Of a stretch of 64,000 bases of DNA, positions 2,219 through 61,372 are shown in pieces. The stretch comes from Candidatus Aldehydirespiratoraceae bacterium (GTDB lineage Bacteria; Actinomycetota; Acidimicrobiia; Acidimicrobiales; Aldehydirespiratoraceae). Position numbers and translations under genes: made by a program. Below the pieces are notes generated by a model, which searched no databases, had not been told where the DNA came from, and saw nothing but the letters and a program-made list of their open reading frames with translations. How positions within the stretch are numbered: position 1 is the first letter of the stretch; the number at the start of each line of letters is the position of its first letter. Where the stretch lies: the NCBI GenBank assembly GCA_965205465.1, contig OZ242187.1, forward strand, positions 2,078,890-2,142,889. The letters are read 5' to 3'.

Positions 2219-2229
2219 AGGCACTCACT

Positions 2230-4022: not shown

Positions 4023-4258
4023 GAGTACTGAGGTTGGATCTGACTATCCCCATGAAATCCGTCGAGATGAAACTGTAAGGTCGGACCGCTCCAAACCCAC
4101 CAACTGAGACCGGCGTGAGTGCGGTAACGGTGAGTGCCATCACGACAAGCCCTAGAGGGTGTCGCGCTCCAACTGCTTGTCCTTCCGTTCCCAAAAACTG
4201 CCGCACCGGTCTCCCAGTTGCATCCCCGCAACCAGATCACCAAATCCGCGACACACCA

Positions 4259-4642
4259 CTAGGGAGCTATTGCTACCGTTGCGTCGATCTCCACCAGCAT
4301 TTCAGCTCGGGGTAGTCCGGTTTCAACTGTCGTGCGCGCTGGGTAGGGGGCTTTGAAGTACTCGGCGTACACGTCGTTCATTCCCTCGAAGTTCTCCATT
4401 GTTGTGAGGTACACGCGGACCTGCACAGCATTATTCAAGTGACATCCCGCGGCCAGAGCCACAGCGGCCAGGTTGTCGAGCGTTTGTCTGGTCTGTGATC
4501 GGATGTCGGGACCGGCCAAGGCGCCGTTTCTGTCATATGGGCCCTGGCCGGAGAGAAAGGCCAAGTCATTGTGTTTGATGGCCGACGAGTACGGCCCGGC
4601 GGCGGGAGGCACGTCGGTAGCTGTCACGGCTTGTCGAGTCAT
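4259..4642 (-). CDS. RidA/YjgF-family reactive enamine/imine deaminase
   Basis: 127 aa. AAGPYSSAIKHNDLAFLSGQ...TTVETGLPRAEMLVEIDA matches the YjgF/RidA pattern. Confidence 0.85.
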   Translation of the reverse strand: MTRQAVTATDVPPAAGPYSSAIKHNDLAFLSGQGPYDRNGALAGPDIRSQTRQTLDNLAAVALAAGCHLNNAVQVRVYLTTMENFEGMNDVYAEYFKAPYPARTTVETGLPRAEMLVEIDATVAIAP

Positions 4643-30171: not shown

Positions 30172-30298
30172 CGGGTTACATCGGTTACGCCGGGAGTCGG
30201 TCACCCGACACCGCGTTGGAAGCCAGCGATCATCGACCCGTGATCCTACCGTTGATGAAGCCGCCGGCCCGCGGGGTGCCGGCAAGCTGAGGCCCTGC

Positions 30299-31495
30299 TC
30301 AGAATCCGACGAGACGTTGGGCGTAGTACTGCCGACGACGCAGGATCTCTGAGCGCTCCTCGGGAGTGACCCGCCGAGTCGACTTCGGTACGTGCTTGTC
30401 GATGTCGTCGAAGGGCACCAGGCGCATCTCCGGCTCAGGCCAGGCATCGGTGAGCAGCCAACGCCCGTTGAGCGGTCCCCATGTGTATCCGGCGGTGTCG
30501 AGCCAGTTGTAGACCCCGGGGTCCCGGTGGGAGATGACGCAGCGGAAGACGCCGTCGTCGTCCACCTCGGCTTGGTGCCCGTTGAGCGATGTTTGACGTC
30601 GCCACCAATCAAGCGACTCCCAGAACCAGCTGGCGACCTGGAACCCCCAGTAGTGGCAGTCGGGCGGGGCGACTTCGAGGATCACTGCCTCGTCGGGTTG
30701 GCACTGGAAGTTGCCCATGCCGTACGACAAGCCTCGGTGCCCTCCCCACTCGCTCAATCCGGGATCGAGGAACGGAGACGAGTTCGGTTTGGTGTCGAGG
30801 CACCAGTGCGCCATGTCGTCCATGAACCTGGCCCCGTGCTCAATCCAGCGCATCAGCAGTTCGTACTTCTCGATTGTCCGTTCGGGTGGCTCGGGCGGGG
30901 GAGGATACGTCGCCCCAACCCGCTCGATCGTCAGGTCGGCAGGAACTTCGGTCTCCCAGTCGTAGAAGAACTGGCGAATGCACAGCGACTGCGTGCCCGG
31001 TTGGCTCTGGAGCCAGTTGCCCTCGTGAGGCTGAGGGCTGACGATGATCTCGACCGAACCGTCGTCGGCAACCTCGAGTTGCTCGAAGTTGATGTTGGCG
31101 ATGACCCGGTGGTTGGGTTGTTCGCAGAAGTGCGGAGCGTGGACTTGCACGTCGAACTGGTGGGCAGTTCCGCGCCGTCCATAGATCCGGTACGTGTCGG
31201 TGTCGTTGACTGCGGCGAACTCGTAGTTCCCGTCGGGGTTGTCGATCCCCCATGACCAGGCTTGATCGGCCCAACGTTCGAACCAGGGGTACTCGGGGTC
31301 GTTGTTCTCCACCGCGAGGATCGCGCCGGCGGTCAGGTAGCGGGTCAGGTATTTGATGCCGTGGGCCCGCATGAGGGAACCCGCAGCAGGACCCCGATCG
31401 CCGTAGACGATGTCTGCCATCTTCGCCCAGGTGTCAAGCACACGCTGGAAGAGCCGACTGTCCATGAGCTCGTTGATCGCCGGTGACTGGTTCAT
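30299..31495 (-). CDS. Conserved hypothetical protein (possibly DUF1214-like)
   Basis: 398-aa ORF with strong coding bias, Trp-rich, no signal peptide. The family call is tentative. Confidence 0.6.
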   Translation of the reverse strand: MNQSPAINELMDSRLFQRVLDTWAKMADIVYGDRGPAAGSLMRAHGIKYLTRYLTAGAILAVENNDPEYPWFERWADQAWSWGIDNPDGNYEFAAVNDTDTYRIYGRRGTAHQFDVQVHAPHFCEQPNHRVIANINFEQLEVADDGSVEIIVSPQPHEGNWLQSQPGTQSLCIRQFFYDWETEVPADLTIERVGATYPPPPEPPERTIEKYELLMRWIEHGARFMDDMAHWCLDTKPNSSPFLDPGLSEWGGHRGLSYGMGNFQCQPDEAVILEVAPPDCHYWGFQVASWFWESLDWWRRQTSLNGHQAEVDDDGVFRCVISHRDPGVYNWLDTAGYTWGPLNGRWLLTDAWPEPEMRLVPFDDIDKHVPKSTRRVTPEERSEILRRRQYYAQRLVGF

Positions 31496-36509: not shown

Positions 36510-36824
36510 GTGATGATGGTAGTAGGCAAGCGAGGCCTGGCAGCGTTGCTGGGCGCGATGATGTTGGCGGCGTTGCTGGTTCCCGTCGGTTCGAGTGCGC
36601 AGGCTGCGAACGGGTCTGTTTCGGGTGTGGTGGCGAGTTCGGATGCGCCGGGCGTGCTTACGGTGACGTGGGATGAGGCGTCGCCGGCGCCGTCGGGTTA
36701 TCGGGTGAGCTGGGTGCCGGTGGGGGAGCCGTTCCGTTCGTGGAGTGATCTGTCCGGGAATGCGTACCCGTCGGCGGAGTCGCACACGGTGGGGGGCTGG
36801 TCGCGGGCGCAGAATACAAGGTGA
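36510..36824 (+). CDS. N-terminal piece (signal peptide + first FN3) of the giant exported protein, cut off by a frameshift
   Basis: VMMVVGKRGLAALLGAMMLAALLVPVGSSAQA signal peptide followed by an FN3 start. The frame ends ...SHTVGGWSRAQNTR* right after a G6 run (36791-36796). Confidence 0.75.
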   Translation: MMMVVGKRGLAALLGAMMLAALLVPVGSSAQAANGSVSGVVASSDAPGVLTVTWDEASPAPSGYRVSWVPVGEPFRSWSDLSGNAYPSAESHTVGGWSRAQNTR

Positions 36825-39800
36825 GAGTGCGTGCGCGATATTTCGGGAACTCGCACTGGAGCGGCTCGTGGACCGAGGAGGTCACTGTCCGCATCCAGGA
36901 TGATCCGCCGGCCGCTCCCACCGAGCTGGCCGCCTCCAGTGTGACCCACGACAGCGTTACCCTTACCTGGACGGCGCCGAGCAGCGGTGCGGTCACCGGC
37001 TACAAGGTATTCCGCGGTGCCGACGCCGAGTCTCTGTCTGTCATCGAAGGCAACACTGGCAGTACCGACACGGCGTTCACCGACTCCAGCGTCGCGGCAG
37101 ATACCCAGTATGTCTATTCTGTTCTGGCCCTGAGTCCCGACGGCGATGGGGCCGAGTCCGGCATCTTCACCGTGACCACGCCCGCTGACGACACCGAGAG
37201 TTCAGAGACGAATGTGGAGGACGAGAACTCTGTTGAAGTGATCACGGTGACCTTCCCGCAAACGCCTGCCGAGCATGACGGCGTTACGGACTTCCACATG
37301 CACTTGGACTTCAGCCACGTTCCAGACAGCTTGGGCTGGCGGTCTCTGAAGGCCACCATGAGTTTTGAGGGCGCCACCACCGGCAGAGTCTGGCGCCGAG
37401 ATTCAGGGGTCGGTCGTCTCTGGGGCGTGACGGTGGTCCCCGACGGGATCGGTGACATTACCGTGACGATAAACGGCACTACCAACTGTTCTGACCAACA
37501 TGCGGTGTGCGACGCGAACGGTCTCATGCTTCGCGGCGGTGAGCAGGAAGTAATCCTGGGTCTGCTCACCTTGTCGGTATCCGAGCCGGAAGTTCAAGAG
37601 GACCAGGGGGCCACCCTCGACTTCGTGGTGTCCCTGAACCGGGTCCACGACCAGGCGGTTACCGTCTCTTACGAGACCGAGGATGGGAGCGCGACGGCCG
37701 GGTCCGACTACACCTCCGCCTCGGGTTCGCTCACCTTTGACGCCGGTCAGACCGAACAGACGGTGTCGGTAGCGGTGCTGCAGAACGTCGAGGACAGTGT
37801 TCGAGAGACTGTAGTTTTCCGCCTCACCGACCCTGTTGGCGCGATCCTGTACGACGAATATGCCCTGGGTACGATTGTCGGCTTGGAGGTGCCCAGCCAA
37901 CAGGAGGAGGTGAGCAACCAGCAGCCACAAAACCTGGACCCGACCAGCTGGTCGGAAGCGATTGGACGAAGTCCACTAGTGGTGATCACGGATGACGAAG
38001 AGGTAGAAATCCCGGACCCGCCCAGTTTGTCGGTAGCGGATGCAATGGTTAAGGAAGGCGCGGGGGCCACCCTCGATTTCGTGGTGAGCCTCAGTCAGGC
38101 CAGCGACCAAGTGGTTACCGTCACCTACCGCACAGGGCGGGGGACGGGGGACGGGGTCGCGCTGCCCGGTTCCGACTACCACGCCACCTCTGGCAGACTC
38201 ACGTTTGCCGCGGGTGATACGGAGAAGACCGTGTCGGTACGGGTGCGGGAGGACGAGGAGCAAGATGGCCGGGAAACCTTTCCGTTCCTGCTCACCAGCG
38301 CCGTAGGCGCGACCATCGCGGACGCTGAAGCCACGGGAGCGATTCTCAACACCCCGAAGGGACAGCGGCGGCCCGCATATTATGGTCATGACCGACCCGA
38401 TTGGTCCCCGGGACAGATCTTCCCCACCTCCGTCACCAGCACCGAGGCCCACGTCATTGACCTGGAATGGGCCGCGCCGAGCATTTACACCGCTCGCAAG
38501 TTCCGGGTCAACTTTGCACCGGTAGACCCTGCTTTTCCCAACTACAGCTTCCCCTGGGAGGGCGCGGAAACCGGTAATCACTGGGTTCATTACCCATTCG
38601 CGACCTCAACGAGGATTACCGGTCTGACCGGGGGGGTCGAGTACAAGGTGCGGGTGCAGGCCCAATTCCAAGCCCGCGGAGAATCGTCGGCCTGGAATGG
38701 ACCCTGGAGCCACATAATGAAGATAACCGCTGCCGGTGACGGCAGCCCGCCACCGCCATTGGCGACGGCCTCGACAGTCAGTTCGCCGACACCGGAGCAA
38801 TACGCCACCGGCCAACTGACATCGTTGAAGCTGACCACCTCGGAGGTAGGGAACATTCTGGTGGAATGGATCCCGCCGTCCTCGCCCACCAACAACGACG
38901 GTGCATTTCCTCCTGACGACTACCGCGTCAGCTGGGCCAAGGGCGATGAGTCGTTCCCCAGCGCCAGCACTACTGCTGGGAACGCTGATGTCGCCGGGGC
39001 CTCGTACGCGCTGACTGGCCTGGACAGCGGCGAGATCTACCGGGTCCGCGTGCGGGCCAATTACCCAGCCGGCGCGCTGTACCTGCAGCCCGCTTGGAAC
39101 GGCCCCTGGACGGAACTGCAGATAGTTGTCGCCAGCCCGGATTCAGAAAGGACGGGCAGAACTGTGCTCTTGCCCGCGGTGATACCCGAACCGGTGGTCG
39201 CTCCGGTTCCAGCAAAGTACGCACAGGGCCAGTTGGCCACGATGAGGCTTGAAAGCCCTGAGGCCGGGAACATCGAAGCGTCCTGGACCGCGCCGCCGCG
39301 GCCCACAGGCAAAGCACCCAGCGCCTACCAAGTCAATTGGGCCCAGCACGGGAGCCCTTACCCCGATTCTAACGCCTCCACCAGCTATGTTGAGGTAGCT
39401 GGCGCCTCTCACACGCTGACCGGCCTCGAGAGCGGCCACACCTACCGGGTCCGGGTCCGCGCCGGTTACGACCAAGGGTTGCACACTGCCTGGACTGGCC
39501 CCTGGACAGAGCTCGAGATCGTCTCGGCCATCCCCGAACTCACCGCACCCAAGTCGACCATTGAGGCAAGAGGCGCCGGGGCGTCAACGCGGGCGCTGAG
39601 TACCCAGGCGGAGGCCATCGACCACGACAGCGTCGCCGTCAGTGACTACATCTCCAGGGTTTGGGTCGTCTCCCAGCACAACCTTGTCCAGTTTTCCTGG
39701 AGGCGACCGACCCAAACAGTCCAATACCGGATCTGGCGCGCGCCGGCCGGAACCGATGCTTATACGAAGCTGGCTGAGGGCACGGACGTGACGTTGTCCT

Positions 39801-41305
39801 TTCAACCCGATAACCCGCTCGGCTCCCGCTTCTACTTCACCGACACCGTCGTGACTGCGTCCACCAACTACAAATATGCCATCCAGGTGCTGGAAAACGG
39901 GCAGTACAGCACGCCTTACGAGGTCCTCGCCAGCACGACGGAATGGCTTGCTCCGCTGACTCGGACGACGGCGCCAGAAGCCGTGCCAAGGAACGACGAC
40001 GGCGACTATCTGGTGGAAGTGGGTGAGAAACTGAAGGTGTATATAGCCAAGTCGGCCTCCACCGAAAGCTTCCTCGTGACCCTGGAAGCGGGAGAGGCCT
40101 ACCGTGTGGAACTGAACGACGTCGTTGCCCAGTCAATCAGACCCAACCACACCCACAAAGCCGTGGGCGGAATAGCTAGCTACGCAGGACCCATATCACA
40201 TACCCCCAACTTTGGGGCAATAGACATATTGCACACTCACGCTGGCCGACACCACATAAACCTCAGTTCCATAACCCGGGTTGCCAACGGCCGAACGATA
40301 AGCTACGAAAGCCAAGACTACAAGCCGCCGACATCCATGAATTGGCAGGTGTTCTGGGACGGGAATCTGTTCAAGCGCTGGGGCGATCCCGCGCAGTTCG
40401 GCCATGTTTTCCACGCCCCAGCCGCAGGCGACTATCGGGTGCAGGTCAGAACCGACGCCGCCCCCGCACTGTACGCGTTCAGAGTATCCAAGATCGGCGA
40501 CCATCCGGACGTACCGTCCTTCCGTTCCCGGCATCAGCTCTTTACACACGGCATCAGCAATTTGGGGCATAGCACCTCGGTGCTCGGAAATATCGGCGTT
40601 GATGACAAGGACTGGTTCGCCATCAAACTGGAGGCCGGCAAGACGTACCGGGTCGCCCTCGCTGCGGGCGGCAATTTGGAGTGGCAGGGATTGTCCAACC
40701 CTCGCTTGTTCGCCATGGCCGGACCTGACGGCGTACAAGTCCGACCTAGCTTCCAGGGAGCAAGCAGGGACCGGTTCCGGTTCAAGGTGCCCCGAGATGA
40801 AGGCGGTTACTACCACTTCGGCGTCTCGGGTGCTTCCGCCAGTGACCGTGGACTCTACGTGTTCTCCCTCGCCGAGGACGACTTCCCAACCAACCCGAGC
40901 GGCCCGGTACTGGCCGTCGGCCAGCAGTTCATTGGAATGATCGAGTCCGGATCCGACAAAGACTGGATCGGCGTCGATCTGACGGCCGGCCGAAACTACC
41001 GCATCAGAGTGTCCGGCAGCTACGGGAACATCGGCGGCCGCTTATTTACCATATACACCGGCATCGAAAACAAAGTCTATAACAACAGGGGTATGGCAGT
41101 GAACCTCGGCAATCGTCTCAGAAGGGAGAACGCCAACACCGATCACGGCGGCAACGTCGGCTACCTAGTAGGCCGGATCAATTCGTTGCGCTGGACGAAC
41201 GTCGCCACCAGTGGTCGCTACTTCTTCCAAGTCCAACAGTCCAGCCAGAAGGGGGTGAGCAACCTCGGAGCATACTATTTCCAGGTTACGGACATCGGGC
41301 CGTAG
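36821..41305 (+). CDS. Giant exported multidomain protein: FN3 repeats, 2 Calx-beta domains, C-terminal PPC (pre-peptidase C-terminal)-like domains
   Basis: 1494 aa. Calx-beta signature GATLDFVVSL...VTVSYETEDGSATAGSDYTSASGSLTF appears twice. There are multiple FN3 modules (YRVRVRA...) and C-terminal ...DKDWFAIKLEAGKTYRV..., ...DKDWIGVDLTAGRNYRI... The frame is open back to 36749 and continues the upstream piece (LVAGAEYKVRVRARY). Confidence 0.85.
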   Translation: MRVRARYFGNSHWSGSWTEEVTVRIQDDPPAAPTELAASSVTHDSVTLTWTAPSSGAVTGYKVFRGADAESLSVIEGNTGSTDTAFTDSSVAADTQYVYSVLALSPDGDGAESGIFTVTTPADDTESSETNVEDENSVEVITVTFPQTPAEHDGVTDFHMHLDFSHVPDSLGWRSLKATMSFEGATTGRVWRRDSGVGRLWGVTVVPDGIGDITVTINGTTNCSDQHAVCDANGLMLRGGEQEVILGLLTLSVSEPEVQEDQGATLDFVVSLNRVHDQAVTVSYETEDGSATAGSDYTSASGSLTFDAGQTEQTVSVAVLQNVEDSVRETVVFRLTDPVGAILYDEYALGTIVGLEVPSQQEEVSNQQPQNLDPTSWSEAIGRSPLVVITDDEEVEIPDPPSLSVADAMVKEGAGATLDFVVSLSQASDQVVTVTYRTGRGTGDGVALPGSDYHATSGRLTFAAGDTEKTVSVRVREDEEQDGRETFPFLLTSAVGATIADAEATGAILNTPKGQRRPAYYGHDRPDWSPGQIFPTSVTSTEAHVIDLEWAAPSIYTARKFRVNFAPVDPAFPNYSFPWEGAETGNHWVHYPFATSTRITGLTGGVEYKVRVQAQFQARGESSAWNGPWSHIMKITAAGDGSPPPPLATASTVSSPTPEQYATGQLTSLKLTTSEVGNILVEWIPPSSPTNNDGAFPPDDYRVSWAKGDESFPSASTTAGNADVAGASYALTGLDSGEIYRVRVRANYPAGALYLQPAWNGPWTELQIVVASPDSERTGRTVLLPAVIPEPVVAPVPAKYAQGQLATMRLESPEAGNIEASWTAPPRPTGKAPSAYQVNWAQHGSPYPDSNASTSYVEVAGASHTLTGLESGHTYRVRVRAGYDQGLHTAWTGPWTELEIVSAIPELTAPKSTIEARGAGASTRALSTQAEAIDHDSVAVSDYISRVWVVSQHNLVQFSWRRPTQTVQYRIWRAPAGTDAYTKLAEGTDVTLSFQPDNPLGSRFYFTDTVVTASTNYKYAIQVLENGQYSTPYEVLASTTEWLAPLTRTTAPEAVPRNDDGDYLVEVGEKLKVYIAKSASTESFLVTLEAGEAYRVELNDVVAQSIRPNHTHKAVGGIASYAGPISHTPNFGAIDILHTHAGRHHINLSSITRVANGRTISYESQDYKPPTSMNWQVFWDGNLFKRWGDPAQFGHVFHAPAAGDYRVQVRTDAAPALYAFRVSKIGDHPDVPSFRSRHQLFTHGISNLGHSTSVLGNIGVDDKDWFAIKLEAGKTYRVALAAGGNLEWQGLSNPRLFAMAGPDGVQVRPSFQGASRDRFRFKVPRDEGGYYHFGVSGASASDRGLYVFSLAEDDFPTNPSGPVLAVGQQFIGMIESGSDKDWIGVDLTAGRNYRIRVSGSYGNIGGRLFTIYTGIENKVYNNRGMAVNLGNRLRRENANTDHGGNVGYLVGRINSLRWTNVATSGRYFFQVQQSSQKGVSNLGAYYFQVTDIGP

Positions 41306-51365: not shown

Positions 51366-51530
51366 GTGGGCGATCGCGTCGCCGCCTGGATCCCGAATGT
51401 CCCGGAGACGTACGTGGTCATGCTCGCGGCAGCTTCGCTTGGCGCCGTGTTCTCGTCGTCGTCACCGGACTTCGGCGCCGACAGCGTTGTAGATCGTTTC
51501 GGTCAGATCGAACCGGTTGTGCTGGTTGCT
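51366..51530 (+). pseudogene. Fragment of the same acetoacetyl-CoA synthetase-like gene (next segment, + strand)
   Basis: [55 protein letters not shown] matches the segment that normally follows the one at 51230-51364. Confidence 0.65.
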
Positions 51531-52313
51531 GCAGGTGTTGTCCGAGGGCATCGCGCGTACTTGACCGGCGCCAGCGACGAGGTGATCGATGATTGGCATC
51601 GCTCTACTGGCGTGACCATGGTGACGATCGCTCCGGAGCTTCCCGGGGCGCTCGATGTCATAGGCGAACTCAACCGCAGAGGAATCGTTGTTGCCGCCGG
51701 ACACTCGGCTGCTACCGCGAACGAGGTGCTGGCGGCCATCGCCGCCGGAGTAAGCACGGTCACCCATCTCTTCAACGCGATGGCTCCTCTCGGGCATCGA
51801 AGTCCGAATCTGGTCGGTGTGGCTCTGGCGGACACGCGTCTCACGGCCGCCATGATCGTCGACGGTGTGCATGTCGACCCCGTCGCGGTGGCGGCGGCCT
51901 GGAACGCCAAGGGGCCCGACGGAATCGCTTTGGTGACCGACGCCGTCTCGGCAATGGGGCAGCCGCCCGGTGCCTACCGGCTGTCGGGCACTCCCACTGT
52001 CTTCGATGGCGTGAGCATCCGTGCTGCAAACGGTGTCCTAGCCGGCAGCGCGGTCACCTTGAACCGAGCTGCGGCCAACCTTGCCGAGTTCACGGGCTGT
52101 GACCGGCACGAGGCTCTAGCGGCCGCGACCTCGATACCGGCGGGGATCATCGGCGAGACCCGCCGGGGGCGCCTGGACCCGGGCTCGATCGCCGACCTGG
52201 TGCTCCTTGATGACGGCTACCGGGTCCAAGCAACGGTTTGCGGCGGTCTCGTGACCCATCTCGACAGGGCATCCGAGCACCGCTTCCCGGAATCGCTCGT
52301 GAAGGTCTCATAG
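51531..52313 (+). pseudogene. nagA: N-acetylglucosamine-6-phosphate deacetylase, lacking the N-terminal ~140 aa and fused in frame to the ligase fragment
   Basis: ...[39 protein letters not shown]...THLFNAM...GLVTDA... is NagA-like. The N-terminal metal-binding part is absent. Confidence 0.75.
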
Positions 52314-52317: not shown

Positions 52318-53103
52318 ATGGAGGTCGTCATCGCAGGTTCGGCCCGAGAGGTTGCGGTCGTGGCGGCCGATGCTTTCGAGAGTGTGCTGTCGACCGCCGA
52401 GCAGCCCGTCCTCGGGTTGGCTACGGGCCGTTCCCCCCTTCCCACCTACCGCGAGCTCATTGAGCGTCACCGCGACGGGCGGGTGAGTTTCGCTCGCACG
52501 CGAATGTTCCTGCTCGATGAGTACGTGGGCCTCGACCCAAAGCATCCGCAGTCGTTCCAGAGCTTCATCCGACGCGAGCTCATCGACCATGTGGACACTC
52601 CCGAAGGCGCTCTGATCGTTCCTGAAAGCGCCTCGGCGGATCTCGCCTCGGCGGCTGAAGCCTACGAACGGCGCATCGCCGAAGCGGGTGGCATCGACTT
52701 GCAACTGCTCGGCATCGGCCGCAACGGCCACATCGGATTCAACGAGCCGCCGTCCTCGCTGGGGTCGAGAACACGCTTGACGACGCTGGCCCGGTCAACC
52801 CGCACCGACAACGCCCACTCGTTCGATGACAACCCCGACAAGGTGCCCCGAAACGGGATCTCTATGGGGGTCGGCACCATTCTCGAGGCCCGCCACGTTG
52901 TGTTGATCGCCACCGGCGAGGTCAAAAGCGAGCCGATCGCCAAGGCTGTGGAGGGACCCGTTACTGCGATGGTGCCGGCATCCGCTCTACAACTGCACCC
53001 CCACGCCACAGTCATCATTGACGAAGCTGCCGGCCGGCAACTGGAACACGCCGACTACTACCGCGAGACATACCGCAACAAGCCCGACCAGCAACATCAT
53101 TGA
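52318..53103 (+). CDS. nagB: Glucosamine-6-phosphate deaminase
   Basis: 261 aa. LGLATGRSP, FLLDEYVGL and LLGIGRNGHIGFNEP motifs. Confidence 0.9.
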   Translation: MEVVIAGSAREVAVVAADAFESVLSTAEQPVLGLATGRSPLPTYRELIERHRDGRVSFARTRMFLLDEYVGLDPKHPQSFQSFIRRELIDHVDTPEGALIVPESASADLASAAEAYERRIAEAGGIDLQLLGIGRNGHIGFNEPPSSLGSRTRLTTLARSTRTDNAHSFDDNPDKVPRNGISMGVGTILEARHVVLIATGEVKSEPIAKAVEGPVTAMVPASALQLHPHATVIIDEAAGRQLEHADYYRETYRNKPDQQHH

Positions 53104-53140
53104 ACAAGTCTGATCAGCAACATCATTGAACGAGTCTGAT
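53089..53140 (+). repeat. 26-bp tandem duplication spanning the nagB stop codon
   Basis: CAGCAACATCATTGAACAAGTCTGAT followed immediately by CAGCAACATCATTGAACGAGTCTGAT (1 mismatch). Confidence 0.9.
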
Positions 53141-53316: not shown

Positions 53317-54417
53317 GTGCTGTTGCGGGTTGCGGCGAAAGTAGGGCATCAGGACACTCGGAGCACGAACCGGCGGTTGGTGCTGCAGGCGCTGGTCCGC
53401 TCAAGCGGTCGCAGCCGCGCCGATCTGGCCCGCATGACCGGTCTCACGCCGGCGACGGTGTCGGCGCTGGTGGCTGACTTGTTCGAGGAGGGCCTTGTCG
53501 AAGAGTTGGGGCGGGGCCCGGCCAAGGTGGGCAAACCTTCGCAGCTGCTGGGGTTGAACGCCGGCTCACGGAACATCATCTGCGTCGACTTGAGCGACAG
53601 TTCGGTGCTGCGGGCCGCGGTGATCGATCTGTCCGGTGAGATCATCCATCGGGTCGAGCACCCGTTCGTAGGGGTCGCCGGCGAGGCGGCGGTCGCGCTG
53701 ACCTGCGATGCGGTCGCGGAGGCGGTCTCGGCGGCGCTGGCGCCGCTGTTGGGTGTCGGGGTGGGAACGCCCGGGGTGGTGGCGCCCGAGGGCATCGTGG
53801 TCGAGGCCAGCCGCTTGGGCTGGACCGGCCTAGACCTGGCTCAGCGGCTCGGTGACCGCTTCAGTGTGGCGGTGAGGGTTTCCAACGACGCCAACGCGGC
53901 CGCGCTGGCTGAGTACTCCCACGGGTCGGGCAGCCACAATTTGATGGTCATCCGCATCGGTAGCGGTGTGGGCGCTGGGATAGTGCTCAACGGCCAGCGC
54001 TACTACGGCGAGAGCTTCGCGGCAGGCGAGATCGGCCACGTAGTCGTCGTTGACGACGGCCCCCGGTGCTCGTGCGGCAACCGGGGCTGTCTGGAGACCT
54101 TTGTGTCGGCTCCGTTGCTGAGCGCTGCCATCGCGGCCGGCGAGGACCCCCACGAGGTCGTGGCGGCCGCTGGGCGGCGGCTCGGCGTCGCGTTGGCCCC
54201 AGCGGTGAGCGTGCTCGACATCCATGACATCGTCGTGTCCAGCTACGGGCTGCCCCTCCCGGATGAGCTGTGCGGGGCCGCCTTGGAGTCGCTGCGAGCG
54301 CGCACCCTGGCCCGCTTGGCTCGTTCGGTCACTCTGCGGCCGTCGAGTCTCGGCGCCGACATGGTCCTTCTCGGCGCGAGCGTTCTCGTGCTGAGTCAAG
54401 AGCTTGGGGTCGCCTGA
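53317..54417 (+). CDS. ROK-family transcriptional regulator (NagC/Mlc-like)
   Basis: N-terminal wHTH (RRLVLQALVRSSGRSRADLARMTGLTPATVSALVADL) plus a ROK sugar-kinase-like body with a CSCGNRGCLE zinc motif. Confidence 0.85.
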   Translation: MLLRVAAKVGHQDTRSTNRRLVLQALVRSSGRSRADLARMTGLTPATVSALVADLFEEGLVEELGRGPAKVGKPSQLLGLNAGSRNIICVDLSDSSVLRAAVIDLSGEIIHRVEHPFVGVAGEAAVALTCDAVAEAVSAALAPLLGVGVGTPGVVAPEGIVVEASRLGWTGLDLAQRLGDRFSVAVRVSNDANAAALAEYSHGSGSHNLMVIRIGSGVGAGIVLNGQRYYGESFAAGEIGHVVVVDDGPRCSCGNRGCLETFVSAPLLSAAIAAGEDPHEVVAAAGRRLGVALAPAVSVLDIHDIVVSSYGLPLPDELCGAALESLRARTLARLARSVTLRPSSLGADMVLLGASVLVLSQELGVA

Positions 54418-54626
54418 CGGCACCCCGCAACCGAATGAAACGAACAACGAGTCACCCAAAGCGGACCGCGAGGTACCCGCACTTCCACAGTGAGACCAAC
54501 GCTGTCAAGTGGTAGACGACGCTGTTCCAGGGGGCGCCGCTGTTGTCGACCGGCAGGGCTATCGAGGTGGTGTGGCTTTTGTGGTAGCGTTCGTAAATCC
54601 TGTTACAACGGACCTGCTATTGATCC

Positions 54627-55283
54627 ATGTCTCCCCCTGAAATTTTCCCCAGCGTCGACGATGGCACGCTGACTCCCAAGCATGATCCCAGCAAAACGAC
54701 GGCGCGCTTGCTGGAGGTCGCCGCCAAAGAATTCATAGAGCGCGGCTATGAGGCGGCCCGGGTGAGCGACATCGCCCGTCGTGCGGGGGTGACAACGGGT
54801 GCCATCTATGCTCGTTGGCCCAACAAGACCGACGTGATGGTGGCCGCCCTGAACCACATCTTCCAGAAGATCCTCCCTGATGGAGAGATCGAAGCTCTCG
54901 GTGTCTCAGAGAAGGAACCTCTCGACATCATGGCGGTTCTGGGGGAGAACCTGCTGGTCTTCGACGAGAACAAGGACATCATGGTCCAAGTGTTCGGCAG
55001 CGCCCGGAACAACGAAGCGATCCGAGCCTGCCTTCAGACATACCTCGACGACGAGGCTGACCAGTTGAGCCGCCTTGTAGAGGAGGGCAAGAACACGGGT
55101 TTGTTCGATCCCGCCGTCAGCACCACCGCCATCAGCTTGCTGTGCCAGTCGCTGGGCCTCGGCAGCCACTTGCTGCTCACAGCCGGCCTCAGCGAGCGCC
55201 ATGTCCCCAGCGAAGACGAATGGATTGACCTGCTCTGGAAGTTGCTGACCGCCGTGGCCCCCCCACCGCCGCCACCGCACTAA
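54627..55283 (+). CDS. TetR/AcrR-family transcriptional regulator
   Basis: LLEVAAKEFIERGYEAARVSDIARRAGVTTGAIYARWPNK is the canonical TetR_N HTH. Confidence 0.9.
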   Translation: MSPPEIFPSVDDGTLTPKHDPSKTTARLLEVAAKEFIERGYEAARVSDIARRAGVTTGAIYARWPNKTDVMVAALNHIFQKILPDGEIEALGVSEKEPLDIMAVLGENLLVFDENKDIMVQVFGSARNNEAIRACLQTYLDDEADQLSRLVEEGKNTGLFDPAVSTTAISLLCQSLGLGSHLLLTAGLSERHVPSEDEWIDLLWKLLTAVAPPPPPPH

Positions 55284-55413
55284 CCGCCGGACTCACCCCG
55301 CCTCTGAATGCCTCGTAGCAATGGGCCACATACCCAAGCCCAGCATGTTGCGTACTTCCTCCGCCTTTCGACGGATATCGTCCTTTTGGGAGAACTGAGC
55401 ACGGTGGCTGAGC

Positions 55414-55455
55414 GGATCTCTGGAGTGGTCAACTCGCTATATCGATCGTCGGCGT
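55414..55455 (+). repeat. 42-bp direct repeat, copy 1
   Basis: GGATCTCTGGAGTGGTCAACTCGCTATATCGATCGTCGGCGT. 40/42 identical to 62495-62536. Confidence 0.9.
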
Positions 55456-55467
55456 CGAGAGATAGAG

Positions 55468-55563
55468 ATTCCCCTCATCGCCGCTACGACCGAGTTGTTC
55501 GATCTCACCGTGCTGCACGTCGATAGGGACTTCGACTTGATAGCGCAGTTCACTGGGCAACCT
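55468..55563 (+). pseudogene. C-terminal remnant of a PIN-domain toxin
   Basis: [32 protein letters not shown] resembles the last helix-strand of VapC proteins. The N-terminal part is missing and there is an in-frame stop at 55396. Confidence 0.5.
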
Positions 55564-55660
55564 GGGGTGAGTTCGGGCGGCTCACAATTCTCGCTGTACT
55601 CGCGGAGCGCTCTGAGGAATAGCTCCCGCTCATCCTCGTTCGATGGCAGTTCGGATCCCA

Positions 55661-55903
55661 TCAGCGGTAGAGGTCCTTCCTGGCGCCGATCGTAAGCACG
55701 ACAATGTCACCGTCTCGCGCTGTGTAGATGATGCGATGAGAGTGTCCTAGGCGCGCGGAGCGCTTGTCCCGCAGTTGGCCCTTGAGTTTTTTCCCGAGTC
55801 CAGGCTCGTCGTCGAGTCGTCTGATGAGCTCGCGCGCTTTCTGCGAGAGCGCCGGGGGTAACCCATCGAGGTCTTTATTTGCTCTGGCGGTCAGTTTGGG
55901 CAC
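55661..55903 (-). CDS. RelE/ParE-family toxin
   Basis: GTG 55903 gives about 80 aa, ...[27 protein letters not shown]...[27 protein letters not shown]. It lies 7 nt after the antitoxin stop. Confidence 0.8.
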
Positions 55904-55910
55904 GATTTGA

Positions 55911-56183
55911 TCAATCGAGGGGAACGAGGTCTCCGGCAGCGAGGTCAGCCTCGGCTTCGGCGATAGCGGCCACGGTGTCGCTGTCCGCAAGGATGTTGAG
56001 GGTCTCAATCAGCGATTCGTACTCTTCGTGCCCCACGATCACAGCTGCTGGGCGGCCGTGCTTGGTGATGACGAACTCGGCCCCGGTGGACTCGACCTCG
56101 TCGACGATCTCGCTCAGGCGACTACGGGCATCAGTCAATGGCGCTGTGTAGCTGCTGGGACTGGTGGTGGTGTTGGTGGTCAT
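55911..56183 (-). CDS. Phd/YefM-family antitoxin
   Basis: ...LTDARSRLSEIVDEVESTGAEFVITKHGRPAAVIVGHEEYESLIETL... is the canonical YefM fold signature. The start is taken as ATG 56183. Confidence 0.85.
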   Translation of the reverse strand: MTTNTTTSPSSYTAPLTDARSRLSEIVDEVESTGAEFVITKHGRPAAVIVGHEEYESLIETLNILADSDTVAAIAEAEADLAAGDLVPLD

Positions 56184-56426
56184 ACTCAAACTGTACAGAA
56201 AACCAGACATAACGTCACCAGCGTTTCCTGGAAATCAACGCGCCGCCTATGCCTCGACGCGCGAATTGCAGGCATGAATGGCGGAAGGAGGGGGAAACCA
56301 CCGAGCCTTGCGGCCTTGCTTCGGGGACTGGGGGGATGGGGGTCGGCTGCCGCTCGTTTGAGGCAACTGCGATCAGCAGGGAGCCTCGCTGACAACGCAC
56401 GGCAGCCGACCAACGTCCAAGCGGGG

Positions 56427-58110
56427 CTACTCCTCGGTCACTTTCAGGGTGTAACTGCCTGTGCAGCCATGAAGTCCGGAGCAGTCGCCCGTGCCTGCTA
56501 CCGAGATGTAGTGAGTCCCAGTCCTATTCGCTGTGTAGGTCGTGCCGCCTTTCTGGAACAGATTTCCGAGGCGGTACACGCCGTCGATCAACAGATCCGC
56601 CTCGCTCTCCAGTTGCAGCTTGTAGGTCCGACTATTGGTGAGCTCGACTCGGAACCAGTCACGGTCGCAGGTGTCCCCGTCCAGCTCGATGCCGTCACCG
56701 GTTTCCTCGTGGCAGCTGGAGCCGTAATGGTTTTTCGTCCAGCCCGGCTCATGGGAGTAGTAGCCGTCGGGGCCACCAGTATCACCGGCGTTGTACCAAC
56801 TCGGAGTCGAATCAATCCGGCCCGACACAGAGCCGCCCACAGACACGGTGCCGCTGGTGGACGTGTCCGCCGCGTAGTCGTCGAAGAACGGGGCAGACGC
56901 CTCGGTCACTTCCAGGTGCCAGTCGCCCAGCCGCTGACCCGCTGAGCCGCGGCTGCCGAACTCGATGATGTGGTCTCCGGTCTCGGTCGCGGTGTAGATG
57001 AGGCGCGCCGCGTTGCCGGGGCCGGAGTCGTGGTCGAAGAAGCCGTCGTAAGACGCCCCGAAGAAGGTGGTGCAGGCCGGTGGGTCCGGTGGAGTATTTG
57101 TATAATCACACCGGCCGGTTCGCGTGATCCGGTCGCCGTTCGGGTCCCGGATGTCTATGATCCACGGGTCGATGCCCGGGTATCCGACGGATCGAACGTC
57201 GATCTGGTACGACTTCCCGTTCACCATCGGCACGTCCACCGCGTCAGTGTCAGTGGGGGTCCCGATGGTCCCCGTCGCAGTGTCCCCGACGTCCACGGTA
57301 GGTTCGATCTCAGCAGTGCTCCGGTCCGCCACGAGCACCGTCTTGCCTCCGGACGTCGTGGTGATCTTCACGTAGTGCACGCCCGCCACCGACGGCGTGA
57401 AGAAGTTGAGCGACGCATCATTGCTGCCCACTCCTGTGCCTGCGCGTGCTCTCGTGTTTCCAATCTCCACTTCGTCCGGTCCGCACACGAACTTAATCTC
57501 CGCCTTGCCGATTTCAGCGTCAGCGTAGATCTGATACGTGCCCAGAGCGTCCGTGAGCATGACCTGCACCCATTCCTGGCTGCTGGAGAGGCCCTTCCAC
57601 GCGTCGAGCGTGGCAGTGACGATGTTCGCAGCAGGGCTACACGTTTCGCCTGCCGCCTTCTCGGTCAGGGGCTCCTTCTCGGGGACTTGGGTGATGGTGC
57701 CCGGCGTCGGCCTCAGGGGGAGAGGGGGAGGGGGTTCGTCGAGCATCAGCTTGGCGACCCGTGAGCGTCGGCTTGTCAGCGAGTCGCGTACCGCAGCGAC
57801 TTTGTAGCGCCGGTCGCCTGCGGTCAGGTCCGTGTCGGTCCACTCGTTCAATTCGCCGTCAACCGTGGCGATCACCGTGTGGGATGTCTCCGCGGGACGG
57901 ATCTTGCGCAACACCTGCCACGAGTCCACCGTCTCGTCCGGGGCATCCCAGCTAAGAAATACCCCCCCCCCCCCCGCTGTCGAGGTCGGCGGTCAGGCCG
58001 GTCGGCCGGTCCGGCGCGACGGGTGTTGCGAATGCTTGGGTGGCCAAACCGGCGACAAGTGCCCCGGCCAGCAGTACAGCCATCCATGCGCGGTTACGTC
58101 TCTTGAACAT
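56427..58110 (-). CDS. Exported FN3 + PPC-like domain protein, currently out of frame at a poly-G tract after the signal peptide
   Basis: ATG 58110 (GAAGGAACGAGAC upstream) encodes MFKRRNRAWMAVLLAGALVAGLATQAFA-TPVAPDRPTGLTADLDS, then G14, then a stop at 57952-57954. The ORF body 56427..57929 continues the FN3 (..FLSWDAPDETVDSWQVL..) in the -1 frame. The C-terminal repeats contain DDYAADTSTSGTV...DRDWFRVELTNSRTYKL. Confidence 0.8.
57962..57975 (-). repeat. Homopolymeric tract: 14 G on the coding (-) strand
   Basis: The + strand reads A-C14-G. The tract starts exactly at codon 46 of the signal-peptide ORF. 13 or 16 G would join it in frame to the FN3 body via GTA (Val). Confidence 0.95.
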
Positions 58111-58185
58111 GTCTCGTTCCTTCTCTCAGGCACGAGCAACTGATTGTGCCCGTACGTACGCACGTCGCTGCATCCTATTGTAACG

Positions 58186-58221
58186 GACACATGATGTCAT
58201 CGTAGCCGACACATGATGTCA
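58186..58221. promoter_or_regulatory. 14-bp direct repeat x2 (22-bp period) in the promoter region of the poly-G gene
   Basis: GACACATGATGTCA at 58186-58199 and 58208-58221. On the gene strand the upstream copy forms part of a perfect TTGACA hexamer. Confidence 0.4.
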
Positions 58222-58289
58222 ATAGTAATCGATATTATTAATTGCCGCGATCGCTGAAGCGGGACGGCTGCTGACACCAGCAGGGCCTT

Positions 58290-58454
58290 TCAGTGGCGGT
58301 GGCAGCGTCGCTGCGTTCGATCTGCGAATGCGTCGCGCACATCCAGGCGGGTGAGGCAGGCCAGCACGTCGCTTTGGTGTATCCGGTCCACCGGCATGTT
58401 GCCGAGGGTCGGCATGGCGTAGGTCTCCAAGGTCTGCCACCAGGCGGAATATCT
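58290..58454 (-). pseudogene. Remnant of a P4-type (DUF4102-arm) tyrosine integrase
   Basis: RYSAWWQTLETYAMPTLGNMPVDRIHQSDVLACLTRL matches the conserved W..TLE.YA.P.lG..pV..I...DVL segment of tRNA-associated integrases. Only about 55 codons remain, ending at a stop, 16 nt from the tRNA-Ser 3' end. Confidence 0.55.
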
Positions 58455-58469
58455 GCCAACTGTAATTTG

Positions 58470-58554
58470 CGGAGGGAGGGGGATTCGAACCCCCGGGGCC
58501 GTGAAGCCCGCTGGTTTTCAAGACCAGTGCATTCGTCCGCTCTGCCATCCCTCC
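58470..58554 (-). tRNA. tRNA-Ser (anticodon TGA)
   Basis: The reverse complement GGAGGGATGGCAGAGCGGACGAATGCACTGGTCTTGAAAACCAGCGGGCTTCACGGCCCCGGGGGTTCGAATCCCCCTCCCTCCG has a long variable arm and anticodon loop CTTGAAA. Confidence 0.95.
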
Positions 58555-58754
58555 AACTGACCAGGATACTGGAACGCCTCTGGAACAGGGCTCGCCAACA
58601 GCCCGGGCATAGCTCGCGCTGCTCCGTCGGCTCTGTCACATGCCTGTGCGAACCTGTGCTCTTGCACGCGCCTTCTGGGAGCGATGAGTCCGAGACTCAG
58701 GCCCTGGGGTAGCGCGTGTCATCGGATTAGCGTCCCCGTCTTGGAGCATCGAAA

Positions 58755-60419
58755 ATGCAATACTTCACACAAATGACACTGACAGGAGTCGAGGCGGTGC
58801 CCGAGGCCGCGGTTAGCGGGGGTTTGTCTTGCGAGCGTGGCCTCGCAGTTGCTGCGTGGGCGATCGCCAAGAACGGGGCCCTTGCGGGGATCACAGGACG
58901 CGAGTCAAGCCTGTTGAATGAGACGGGACCGGTAGACGCCGGTTCTGGAATTTACGGGCTGATTGACTTGATTCGGGAGGGTAGCGACCCGCTTGGCGAG
59001 GCGTTTACTCGGATTCGTCCGGCGAGGCAACGCCGGTCGTTGGGAGCGACTTACACCCCGTCTGAGATCGTGTCCTCGATGGTGGCCTGGATCGCCAGTC
59101 AGGGTGAGCCTTCGCGCATCGTTGACCCGGGGACCGGCTCGGCAAGGTTCTTGTTGGCGGCTGGCCGGGCGTGCCCGCAAGCGTCGCTGGTCGGCGCTGA
59201 GATCGACCCTCTTGCTGCTCTTGTAGCCCGTGCAAACCTGACCGCTGCCGGGTTCGACACTCGGTCGCAGATCGTTGTGGGCGACTACAGAACAGCTGCG
59301 TTCGATGACTGCGACGGAAATACTGCGTTTCTAGGCAATCCCCCGTATGTCCGACACCATCAAATCGAACCTGCCGGCAAGAAGTGGCTGGCCGACAGCG
59401 CGGCGCAGCTCGGGCTGCGGGCCAGCGGCCTCGCTGGTTTGCATGCACACTTCTTGGTTGCGACCGCTCTTCGCGCCCGTTCTGGCGACATCGGCTCGTT
59501 CGTCACGTCAGCCGAGTGGCTCGACGTCAACTACGGGCGGCTGATGCGAGAACTATTTGCAGCCCGTTTGGGAGGCTTGTCGATCCACTTGATTGATCCT
59601 ACGGCGAGTCCCTTCAGTGACGCGGCTACGACCGCCGTAGTGACCTGCTTTGAGGTGGGCACCACCTCAAAGGCGATCCGCATGAAGCGAATCCCCGACA
59701 CAGGCGCGTTGGGTGCGCTTGATGACGGACGTGAAATAGACCGACAACAACTTTTCAATGCCCCCCGCTGGACCCCGCTGCTCAACAGGACCCCGAAACC
59801 GCCCGCCGGCTATGTCGAACTCGGTGAGTTTTGTCGAGTACACCGCGGTGCGGTGACCGGCGCGAACAAGACTTGGATCACCGAGGCCTCTGACCCCGCG
59901 CTCCCTTCAAGCGTGCTGATACCTGCGGTTACTCGCGCCCGCGAACTGTTCGACGCACCCGACGGGATGCTGAACACGGCGCTGAATCTGCTCGCTGTCG
60001 TAGCCCTGCCCGCAGACCTGGATATGTTTGACTCCGCTGACAGAGTTCTCATCGACAGGTTCCTTCGTGCAGCGCAGCGGCAAGGCATCCCGTCGGGATA
60101 TGTCGCGAGCCACCGCAGACCGTGGTGGTCGGTGAGGCTCCGAGAACCGGCGCCGATCCTCGCAACTTACATGGCGCGGCGTCCACCGGTGTTCGTGCGC
60201 AACAAGGCCGCCGCGGGCCACATCAACGTAGCCCACGGAATTTACCCGCACGAGCCACTGACGGAGCCGACCCTCGACGCCTTGGCAGCCGCTCTCTGTG
60301 CTGCGGGCCCCACCGCTGTTGGACGCACCTACGCAGGCGGACTCGTCAAATTCGAGCCGTCGGAGATGGCACGCATCCACATCCCAGCTCCAGAGATGCT
60401 TGAAGTGATTGCAGCGTGA
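58755..60419 (+). CDS. N6-adenine DNA methyltransferase (gamma class, Eco57I/TaqI-like)
   Basis: 554 aa. GATYTP, motif I VDPGTGSARFL, motif IV NPPYV, then a long target-recognition region. Confidence 0.85.
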   Translation: MQYFTQMTLTGVEAVPEAAVSGGLSCERGLAVAAWAIAKNGALAGITGRESSLLNETGPVDAGSGIYGLIDLIREGSDPLGEAFTRIRPARQRRSLGATYTPSEIVSSMVAWIASQGEPSRIVDPGTGSARFLLAAGRACPQASLVGAEIDPLAALVARANLTAAGFDTRSQIVVGDYRTAAFDDCDGNTAFLGNPPYVRHHQIEPAGKKWLADSAAQLGLRASGLAGLHAHFLVATALRARSGDIGSFVTSAEWLDVNYGRLMRELFAARLGGLSIHLIDPTASPFSDAATTAVVTCFEVGTTSKAIRMKRIPDTGALGALDDGREIDRQQLFNAPRWTPLLNRTPKPPAGYVELGEFCRVHRGAVTGANKTWITEASDPALPSSVLIPAVTRARELFDAPDGMLNTALNLLAVVALPADLDMFDSADRVLIDRFLRAAQRQGIPSGYVASHRRPWWSVRLREPAPILATYMARRPPVFVRNKAAAGHINVAHGIYPHEPLTEPTLDALAAALCAAGPTAVGRTYAGGLVKFEPSEMARIHIPAPEMLEVIAA

Positions 60420-61372
60420 CCACAATCAGGCCGCCTTGGTGGGAACCCGAGGACTTCCAACGGGACCTGGACAGAGCCGTCGAACTGTTCCGGGCACGGA
60501 GACTGAAAGAACCCGTCGACCAGTACCGCAGGGAATTCGAGGAAGCCGTGGAGCGAGTCGAGCATCTCCTGAGGAACACCGACAACCTGACCGCGACCCT
60601 GCCGGGTGCGCCGAATGCGCCGGAGGTGGTACTGGGTCTCCTGGCAGACCCGGAGTTGCGCGTCGTCTTGAGGTACTTGGCTGGGCCACCGATCTCAGAG
60701 GATGATCTCAAGACACTTGCCGAAGCGCCCTCCTTGGCCCCGAGTCGGCTCAGCGGAGACGAGGCCATGGTGCAGCGGATCATGGCGGTGTTGCACGAGA
60801 GCCTCGACACCAAACGCTTCCCTTGGATGCCGGCGCCGGAGCAAGAATCCCCGGATGACAGAGATCTGTATGCCGCAGTCGTCGCGTCGGCGAGCCTCCT
60901 CGCCACACAGCGCGTACAGACAACGCGCCGAAATACTGACAAGGAACGTCAAGAAGGAAGGGTGCAGAGATACTTGACGCTGATTGGACTCAAGCAGGTT
61001 GATCCGAGACCGATCCCGACAGTCCGCGAAGCCCCTGAACCCGGCGAGTTCTGCGGTGAATGCCAGGTTGCCCGGCGAAAAGCCGACATCGTGGTGGCGC
61101 TCCATGACGGGCGGGTCATGCCCATCGAGTGCAAGGTCTCCAACTCAGCAATCAACTCCGTCAAACGACTCAACAACGACGCGGCCGCCAAAGCGGCCCA
61201 ATGGCTCGACGCGCTCGGCAAGGACCAGGTTGTGCCATGTGCCCTGCTATCCGGCGTCTTCAACAAGCACAACCTCGAAGATGCCCAGAACGCGGGGCTA
61301 GCGATCTTCTGGGCTCACAACCTCAAGCCACTCGGAATTTTCATTCGCACCATCCAAGAGCAGACCCCCTAG
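60416..61372 (+). CDS. Type II restriction endonuclease, XamI-family-like (PD-(D/E)xK)
   Basis: 318 aa, with a 4-nt overlap onto the methylase stop. The candidate catalytic core is ...RRKADIVVALHDGRVMPIECKVSNS... The family call rests on recollection of XamI-like architecture. Confidence 0.6.
   Translation: MTTIRPPWWEPEDFQRDLDRAVELFRARRLKEPVDQYRREFEEAVERVEHLLRNTDNLTATLPGAPNAPEVVLGLLADPELRVVLRYLAGPPISEDDLKTLAEAPSLAPSRLSGDEAMVQRIMAVLHESLDTKRFPWMPAPEQESPDDRDLYAAVVASASLLATQRVQTTRRNTDKERQEGRVQRYLTLIGLKQVDPRPIPTVREAPEPGEFCGECQVARRKADIVVALHDGRVMPIECKVSNSAINSVKRLNNDAAAKAAQWLDALGKDQVVPCALLSGVFNKHNLEDAQNAGLAIFWAHNLKPLGIFIRTIQEQTP

Follow-up and report, generated by a model that had tools for sequence, protein, structure and literature searches.

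A candidate slipped-strand frame switch: a poly-G tract behind a predicted signal peptide in an FN3-like protein family of Acidimicrobiia

Introduction

Most of what is known of contingency loci comes from pathogens and a few gut commensals. The present work deals with a candidate for such a locus in a 64-kb stretch of contig OZ242187.1, called the window in the following, where a gene on the minus strand is divided by an uninterrupted run of 14 guanines (G14) into a short open reading frame (ORF) with the start codon and a signal peptide and a long reading frame for the body of the protein. We consider it probable that this run is a hypermutable tract which acts as a functional slipped-strand frame switch, that is, as a contingency locus. 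Alleles in which the tract joins the signal peptide to the body in one frame are called ON and those in which it separates them OFF.

The closest described system is found in Bifidobacterium breve UCC2003, where an intragenic G-tract in the sortase-dependent pilin genes bbr_0113 and bbr_1889 has been shown experimentally to switch by replication slippage (PMC9187656). Both organisms belong to the Actinomycetota, and in both loci an ORF with a Sec signal and an ORF for the body are split by a 5' G-run (G10 to G12 in Bifidobacterium), the length of the tract decides on their fusion, lengths vary at the equivalent site in related strains, and the context is that of an animal-associated commensal or symbiont. 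The protein studied here is unrelated to the pilins, however, since it consists of FN3-like and beta-sandwich parts and lacks an LPXTG motif, and no sortase or pilus operon lies nearby. Furthermore, its tracts are longer (G16 was read and about G22 is implied by protein sequences), the gene is multicopy with a hypervariable body, and while switching was measured in Bifidobacterium, the evidence for the present locus comes from comparing sequences. It would thus work like the Bifidobacterium pilin switch without being a member of that system. With the same architecture proven in the same phylum, the remark in the initial annotation of the window that such switching was not known for surface-protein families in this kind of genome was too strong.

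The locus is also in keeping with homopolymer contingency loci in general, those of Mycoplasma included. With the loci of Neisseria, Haemophilus, and Campylobacter (for the Neisseria phasome see PMC5953494) it shares a poly-G/C run near the 5' end of the coding sequence which switches translation ON and OFF by frame, length polymorphism from strain to strain, and short or interrupted alleles which are phase-locked. Those are Gram-negative organisms with MutSL repair and well-measured switching rates, whereas here the sequence of an uncultured acidimicrobial symbiont was read.

The glpK tract of Mycobacterium tuberculosis, which is 7 nt long, differs from G14 in being short and in lying in a metabolic gene, not after a signal peptide and not in a multicopy, hypervariable family of exported proteins. 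What the two organisms have in common is the phylum and, presumably, a background of repair which leaves indels uncorrected. Reversible frameshifts in G/C homopolymers, such as those of glpK and the ESX-1-associated tracts, have been described as adaptive variation in M. tuberculosis (bioRxiv 10.1101/717272, PMC10334774, PMC11898584), and the NucS-type mismatch repair of actinobacteria is described as leaving indels uncorrected (PMC8228993). In the organism studied here the same lack of indel repair would favour slippage of the tract.

A further connection is to the eukaryotic-like proteins of sponge symbionts (with fn3, cadherin, or Calx-beta domains). Proteins with fn3 domains are reported to be enriched in symbiotic Acidimicrobiia and have been proposed to serve in host recognition or in escape from digestion (PMC11706023). 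The likeness consists of an FN3-like exported protein and of one named family member from Candidatus Poriferisodalis, a sponge-associated genus of Acidimicrobiia; the Poriferisodalaceae have been described as a sponge-symbiotic clade (PMC11706023). No published on/off or length-variable control of sponge-symbiont eukaryotic-like proteins was found, PMC11706023 does not mention frameshifts or pseudogenes, and in the literature searched we came across no such switch in either sponge symbionts or Acidimicrobiia.

The Tract and Its Reading Frames

Along the minus strand, the gene runs from the ATG at 58110-58108 through MFKRRNRAWMAVLLAGALVAGLATQAFA and TPVAPDRPTGLTADLDS, the latter being the peptide between the signal peptide and the tract, to G14, GGT ATT TCT, and a TAG at 57952-57954 (coordinates of all features are collected in Table 1). 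Rereading of the sequence confirmed that the tract follows the signal peptide and that this TAG follows the tract, as the initial annotation had it. In the translation the signal peptide displays a positively charged n-region (MFKRRNR), a hydrophobic core, and the residues AFA preceding TP; no cysteine lipobox was seen in it. In the frame of the short ORF, called the stub and terminated by the out-of-frame TAG, G14 encodes a run of glycines. In an in-frame allele this glycine run comes to lie inside the FN3-like domain.

The reading frame of the body is already open from 57962, the last G of the tract, extends over 511 codons to a TGA, and closes with the native C-terminus of the family (...CTGSYTLKVTEE). 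The initial annotation had counted only the 500-aa ORF of the ORF list (56427..57929, same strand as the stub), which begins with a GTG at 57929, and had placed it in the -1 frame. As deletion of one G reaches the body, the frame of the body is +1 with respect to the signal peptide, so that both statements had to be corrected. The expectation of a continuous reading frame for about 560 amino acids with 13 or 16 G was borne out by editing the tract in silico: G13, G16, and G10 gave single ORFs of 560, 561, and 559 amino acids, while G14 led to a stop after 52 codons and G15 to a stop after 79. Since the 511-codon body has neither a start codon nor an export signal of its own, the gene is OFF in the allele of the window.

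The tract stands far above its background. No other homopolymer in the 64 kb exceeds 7 nt, the length of the next-longest one. At the G+C content of 61% about 73 G/C runs of at least 6 nt would be expected from independent bases, and 19 were observed, which makes such runs about four-fold rarer than expected in the window. None of 100 dinucleotide-preserving shuffles matched the observed count of G10. From the run-length counts and the shuffles it follows that the observation of a G14 is correct and not a product of chance. When the window and 16 related loci were taken together (190 kb), all 10 homopolymers of at least 10 nt were located at the tract site, the maximum elsewhere being 9. The glycine run of the tract is written in GGG only, a minority codon which accounts for 18.6% of the glycine codons and occurs as GGG-GGG in 3 of 67 Gly-Gly pairs.

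Tract Length in Related Gene Copies

The initial annotation had proposed to compare the length of the tract among related strains or metagenome-assembled genomes (MAGs), and this comparison turned out to be the most informative one. The tract site could be read in 17 gene copies including that of the window, the others coming from European Nucleotide Archive (ENA) metagenome contigs or MAG records labelled L001 to L016 (L007 contributes two copies, and L009 is treated apart). Lengths ranged from G5 to G16, and all three phases were encountered. Most telling is the contig L006 (ERZ25071132, 71.8 kb, 16x), which differs from positions 53427-60935 of the window by 1 mismatch in 7.5 kb and encodes an identical 500-aa body, and which carries G8, an OFF allele as well, in place of the G14. 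The tract thus appears to mutate much faster than its flanks.

Among the remaining copies the signal peptide is joined to the body in L010 (G14 followed by A), L011 (G11), L003 (G5), and the interrupted tracts of L002 and L004 (GGCGGGG and GGTGGGG). OFF alleles are those of L014 (G12), L012 (G16), L008 (G7), L013 (G5TG15), L005 (G8), and of L015 (24x) and L016 (3x), which both have G14 and come from two different samples, so that the G14 OFF allele is reproduced in two separate samples. Two tandem paralogues at 431-4500 of the 813-kb contig L007 have nearly identical 5' regions and are both OFF, with G12 and G13 and therefore in different frames. In L001 the gene is in frame at the tract (G7), the frame being broken by an upstream 17-bp duplication (GGACCGCCCGACCGGCC, ~4090-4130), which lies where the window has its 8-bp tandem repeat. 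In an 18th copy (L009) the 5' end is replaced by an ISL3-family element at the position of the tract (~2700-2990). At the DNA level the body is open to the native C-terminus in 14 of the first 16 copies read.

In a tree built from the 5' region, which is conserved, ON alleles are interspersed with OFF alleles, and at least three clades whose flanking codons differ from each other contain long tracts. A poly-G artefact at the ends of reads or contigs was discarded as an explanation, since the tract lies between conserved flanks and at the same codon in 17 copies. As a side observation, the signal peptides of L002, L004, and L005 are lengthened in their hydrophobic core by an in-frame 15-bp unit present in 2-3 copies (GALVA repeats).

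Survey of the Protein Family

The family was also surveyed on the protein level in about 123 cluster representatives. In 39 of these the signal peptide is joined to the body via 2 glycines, corresponding to a short tract, and in 14 via 3-5 glycines. Another 39 consist of a body beginning just 3' of the tract (MDSWQV... or MLRKI...), and in 8 the N-terminus is in another frame or could not be classified. In addition, about 19 separately called stubs of 50-83 amino acids were found, containing 2 to 7 glycines and ending in both out-of-frame readings. If every glycine codon is GGG, these stubs imply tracts of about 7 to 22 G. When proteins and stubs were combined, long-tract alleles were distributed over ON, OFF(+1), and OFF(-1) in a ratio of approximately 16 : 12 : 7 by our count.

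The representatives with 2 glycines are in frame at their short or interrupted tracts, and the division into short and long tracts would correspond to the pattern of phase-locked versus switchable alleles. Native C-termini were kept in 35 of the 39 OFF bodies as compared to 44 of 53 ON proteins, three of the latter having variant final residues, which suggests that decay has gone no further in OFF than in ON alleles. Another finding was that in-frame alleles occur at lengths which are three nucleotides apart, namely G11 and G14 from the DNA of L011 and L010 and 8 and 17 as deduced from proteins. Stepwise slippage from one of these lengths to the next must pass through OFF states, which therefore have been recovered from.

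Recurrent alternative-frame C-terminal tails (HRGCGRLCVGPD and others) seemed to point to a second hotspot; they were rejected as such, since the same out-of-frame stop is reached after any upstream frameshift. In three stubs (P0265, P0266, and P0270) unrelated sequence follows the glycine run. These and L009 have breakpoints at the tract, which may be a preferred site of insertion or breakage.

Encoded Protein and Its Selection

The classification of the protein as a PPC- and FN3-containing surface protein in the initial annotation needed qualification. For PPC (PF04151) the window protein reached 18.9 bits at residues 482-538, below the cut-off of 25.9 bits, a PKD match was likewise below threshold, Pfam did not report fn3, and a search of NCBIfam assigned no family. 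What remains of the PPC assignment comes from Foldseek, which matched the modules to PPC-like beta-sandwiches such as the ColG tandem collagen-binding domain (5iku), together with the SIDT1 ectodomain, CUB domains, and botulinum HA70, and from precomputed PF04151 matches in some homologues. The module fold of the window copy is accordingly predicted to be PPC-like, membership in PPC itself being unproven for this copy. As to the FN3 part of the assignment, a profile of 26 family members matched PDB 3mpc, an 'Fn3-like protein', at positions 31-114 with an E-value of 1.5e-4. Neither an LPXTG motif nor a lipobox nor a hydrophobic C-terminal anchor was found in the protein sequence, which makes "surface protein" a stronger term than the data allow; from the domain and anchor analyses the product is an exported and probably ligand-binding protein.

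The AlphaFold model of the protein has a mean confidence score (pLDDT) of 58. It is confident in the region of about residues 150-330 and for several stretches towards the C-terminus, and of low confidence over the N-terminal 149 residues, which include the FN3-like part. Because of this low N-terminal confidence the position of the glycine run in a loop was deduced from the FN3 sequence pattern only.

Selection was estimated by pairwise Nei-Gojobori comparison of 14 intact bodies. The ratio of nonsynonymous to synonymous differences (pN/pS) was 0.04-0.7 in the FN3-like part, indicating purifying selection, 1.2-2.7 in the central modules, and 3.9-16 in C-terminal patches where pS was only 0.007-0.04. 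Over the whole body dN/dS amounted to 0.85-2.1 and was alike for ON-ON, ON-OFF, and OFF-OFF pairs. These values suggest that the putative binding modules undergo diversifying selection or mosaic exchange. In the bodies from L001 to L016 the module variants resemble shuffled discrete cassettes (LTNSR/LIRNR/LTVNR; RLGNLFQ/RFGVQYQ/RHGSLFQ). A diversity-generating retroelement was considered as source of the hypervariability and abandoned: in the 64 kb no part of the gene was found a second time, nor was a template repeat of the kind such elements have, and none of the called neighbours in the window and at the related loci matched a reverse transcriptase. The C-runs which encode the Pro-rich linker reach C8 in relatives, and L005 has one C more than L001 at this place.

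Table 1. Features of the gene with the poly-G tract and of its surroundings (positions in the window).
Feature	Position	Strand	Remark
G14 homopolymer (C14 on the plus strand)	57962..57975	-	135 nt past ATG 58110; putative switch
Stub ORF, 52 aa: start, signal peptide, first FN3-like strand, Gly run	57952..58110	-	ORF list
Sec-type signal peptide, 28 codons (MFKRRNRAWMAVLLAGALVAGLATQAFA)	58027..58110	-	read from translation
Reading frame of the body, 511 codons + stop	56427..57962	-	open from last G of tract to TGA
FN3-like domain, ~residues 31-114 of joined protein, split by tract	57768..58020	-	profile match
Pro-rich linker (DEPPPPLPLRPTPG)	57699..57740	-	encoded by short C-runs; translation
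Tandem beta-sandwich modules (collagen-binding-domain/PPC/CUB-like)	56430..57662	-	hypervariable part of family; AlphaFold, Foldseek, pN/pS
8-bp tandem repeat GACCGGCC, ~3 copies	57984..58011	-	encodes PDRPTGL just 5' of tract
Purine-rich ribosome-binding stretch (putative)	58117-58127	-	
Promoter-like site ATGACA-17-TAGGAT	58172..58200	-	function predicted from the sequence
Direct repeat TGACATCATGTGTC x2, 22 bp apart	58221-58208 and 58199-58186	-	overlaps promoter-like site
tRNA-Ser(tga)	58469-58554	-	gene lies directly downstream
Type II restriction-modification pair: N6_Mtase/Eco57I-like methyltransferase and XamI-like endonuclease	58755-61372	+	
PhdYefM/ParE toxin-antitoxin pair	55661-56210	-	

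A Frame Switch and Its Alternatives

A slipped-strand switch would operate as follows. Replication slippage would add or remove G's, so that lineages move between the ON phase and two OFF phases. The tract would lie 45 codons past the start in the FN3-like domain, in a loop between the first two strands. With 13, 16, or 10 G in the present allele a secreted protein of 560 amino acids with a Gly loop of 3-5 residues would be made, and in the family as a whole in-frame tracts would give a stretch of 2-6 glycines and then the exported protein. With one extra G, as found here, ribosomes would stop 8 codons past the first Gly codon; the stop in this phase is a conserved TAG within Leu-Ser codons (CTTAGC), which should result in a tight OFF state. 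With one G fewer, reading would continue for about 30 codons before a stop is met. What speaks for a contingency locus is the combination of a long 5' tract above background, a tract length which toggles the product, and the occurrence of ON and OFF alleles in close relatives. From the phase-variation switch proposed in the initial annotation, the slippage-prone run which decides on the joining of signal and body and the OFF state of the allele are thus supported by the lengths found in relatives, and switching would be reversible within one population.

Several observations weigh against a selected switch. Near-identical G14 and G8 alleles are both OFF and in the same frame, and the G14 of L015 and L016 has been kept across 8 single-nucleotide differences, so that the consensus length is sometimes slow-moving. 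About one third of the long-tract alleles are in frame, a near-random distribution of phases which unselected drift of tract length would give as well. Body frameshifts were seen in about 9 of 53 ON-type and 4 of 39 OFF-type representatives, further lesions are present in L005 and L013, and the 17-bp duplication of L001 and the breakpoints of insertion sequence (IS) elements or rearrangements at the tract add to these; with such lesions being common, decay is real in this family. Taken together with a whole-body dN/dS of about 1-2, which shows no purifying selection, this could mean that the tract is a nonadaptive hotspot in a fast-evolving and partly decaying family with poor indel repair, in which OFF alleles are young pseudogenes and switching is not selected. 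This explanation appears unlikely, however, as long tracts persist or rearise in at least three clades, in a genome which otherwise avoids homopolymers, as the several in-frame lengths imply recovery from OFF, and as OFF bodies are as intact as ON bodies. Purifying selection on the FN3-like part and pN/pS values far above 1 at such a low pS also speak against it, the latter pointing to positive selection on a working protein.

The accuracy of the tract length itself has to be weighed, too. The names of the contigs (ctgN_16x_l) suggest a long-read assembler, for which homopolymers above 10 nt are the main class of errors, and calls of such tracts may be off by one. By our count 9 of 12 OFF copies read from DNA are exactly one G above an in-frame length, which might reflect a systematic over-call, and Penno et al. 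warn that G-tract lengths in databases can differ from those in the population (PMC9187656). A true tract in frame, for example a G13, with the extra G being an error of the homopolymer consensus is nevertheless very improbable for the present allele. The remaining window consists of long intact ORFs, one of them of 1494 codons, and gives no sign of indel errors; C8 runs within the same genes are in frame; and OFF alleles also occur at short tracts which are reliably called, namely G7 in L008 and G8 in L005 and L006. The G14 OFF call stems from two separate samples, G8 and G14 differ by six bases rather than one, and OFF alleles, which are as numerous as long-tract ON alleles or outnumber them, are too many for consensus errors. 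Any single long tract, that of the window included, may be off by one, and the tract would still be real and hypervariable.

RNA polymerase and ribosomes are both known to slip on long homopolymers. Expression might therefore be leaky, by slippage of RNA polymerase on the C14 or by +1 ribosomal slippage of tRNA-Gly on GGG, with some of the products regaining the frame, in which case tract length would be nearly neutral and the gene would at no time be completely off. This would explain why all three phases are similarly tolerated and why OFF bodies remain intact, and the minority codon GGG could slow down decoding. It seems quite doubtful all the same: ON, +1, and -1 all occur among homologues, as is not the case for a programmed recoding site, and in Bifidobacterium electron microscopy showed pilus-like structures in strains whose G-tract had been engineered to be in frame. 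Programmed frameshifting or transcriptional slippage as a designed mechanism was rejected for the same reason, the frame relation not being conserved among close homologues. When all this is considered, the slipped-strand frame switch is preferred, with OFF cells presumably making no exported product.

Distribution and Genomic Neighbourhood

Members of the family are almost confined to ENA metagenome assemblies, the one named member being from a Candidatus Poriferisodalis sp.; relatives were absent from JGI metagenome contigs, viral contigs, and PHROGs. An origin from a phage tail-fibre-like protein is not supported, as the viral contigs and PHROGs contain no relatives. The family, one of Acidimicrobiia, is lineage-restricted, multicopy, and hypervariable. 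Two or three copies are found per genome, in tandem in some of them. For the glutaminyl-tRNA synthetase (GlnRS) of the window (19142-20782), the best relatives that carry a name belong to Acidimicrobiales and Actinomycetota. The organism is therefore taken to be an acidimicrobial actinobacterium, and it is probably a symbiont of sponges. Four of the records with relatives (L001, L002, L004, and L005) are labelled 'Dehalococcoidia bacterium', a taxonomy which looks wrong given an Acidimicrobiia-like GlnRS and one Poriferisodalis sister MAG.

In the window the gene is flanked by the restriction-modification and toxin-antitoxin pairs of Table 1, which looks like an island-type neighbourhood; a TetR gene is also among the neighbours, and a sortase is absent from them. 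Other copies of the family adjoin a SAVED-domain protein, an AAA_21 ATPase, DUF4365, and IS elements. The surroundings of the copies vary and are rich in defence and mobile genes. The motif of the direct repeat upstream of the gene recurs upstream of the L013 paralogue and could be a binding site for a regulator.

Some further features of the window were noted in passing. The ORF of 1494 amino acids at 36821-41305 on the plus strand weakly matches TIGR00845 (sodium/calcium exchanger) with residues 260-322, far below cut-off; this could be a Calx-beta-type repeat as it occurs in the eukaryotic-like domains of sponge symbionts. At 51366-52313 (plus strand) an ORF combines a short fragment of an AMP-binding enzyme with the C-terminal two thirds of Amidohydro_1 (NagA-like). 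It adjoins nagB-like and ROK genes and may be rearranged or fused. Between the nagB-like and ROK genes lies a 26-bp tandem repeat of 2.5 copies (53077-53140), and a 24-bp repeat of about 2.5 copies (29827-29993) is contained in an amidase-like gene (28936-30612).

Significance

About one third of the family is annotated as N-terminally truncated 'hypothetical proteins' and 50-aa stubs, which distorts the gene catalogues of these MAGs and their counts of pseudogenes. If real, the switch would be the first contingency locus known from the class Acidimicrobiia and from any sponge symbiont, as far as the literature searched shows, and it would exert control over a member of the 'eukaryotic-like' exported repertoire which is thought to mediate host recognition.

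As the family is multicopy and its binding modules are hypervariable, the switch probably varies the exposure of a host-, phage-, or matrix-interacting protein in the symbiont population. A more far-reaching and tentative interpretation is that sponge-symbiotic, Poriferisodalaceae-like Acidimicrobiia possess an exported FN3/beta-sandwich family which is diversified both by the poly-G switch, turning each copy on or off, and by positive or mosaic diversification of its binding modules, and which would serve phase and antigenic variation in a mutualistic, uncultured animal symbiont to manage its recognition by the sponge or by phages. Should the switch be real, the symbionts within one sponge would be a mix of cells displaying and cells not displaying a given binding protein.

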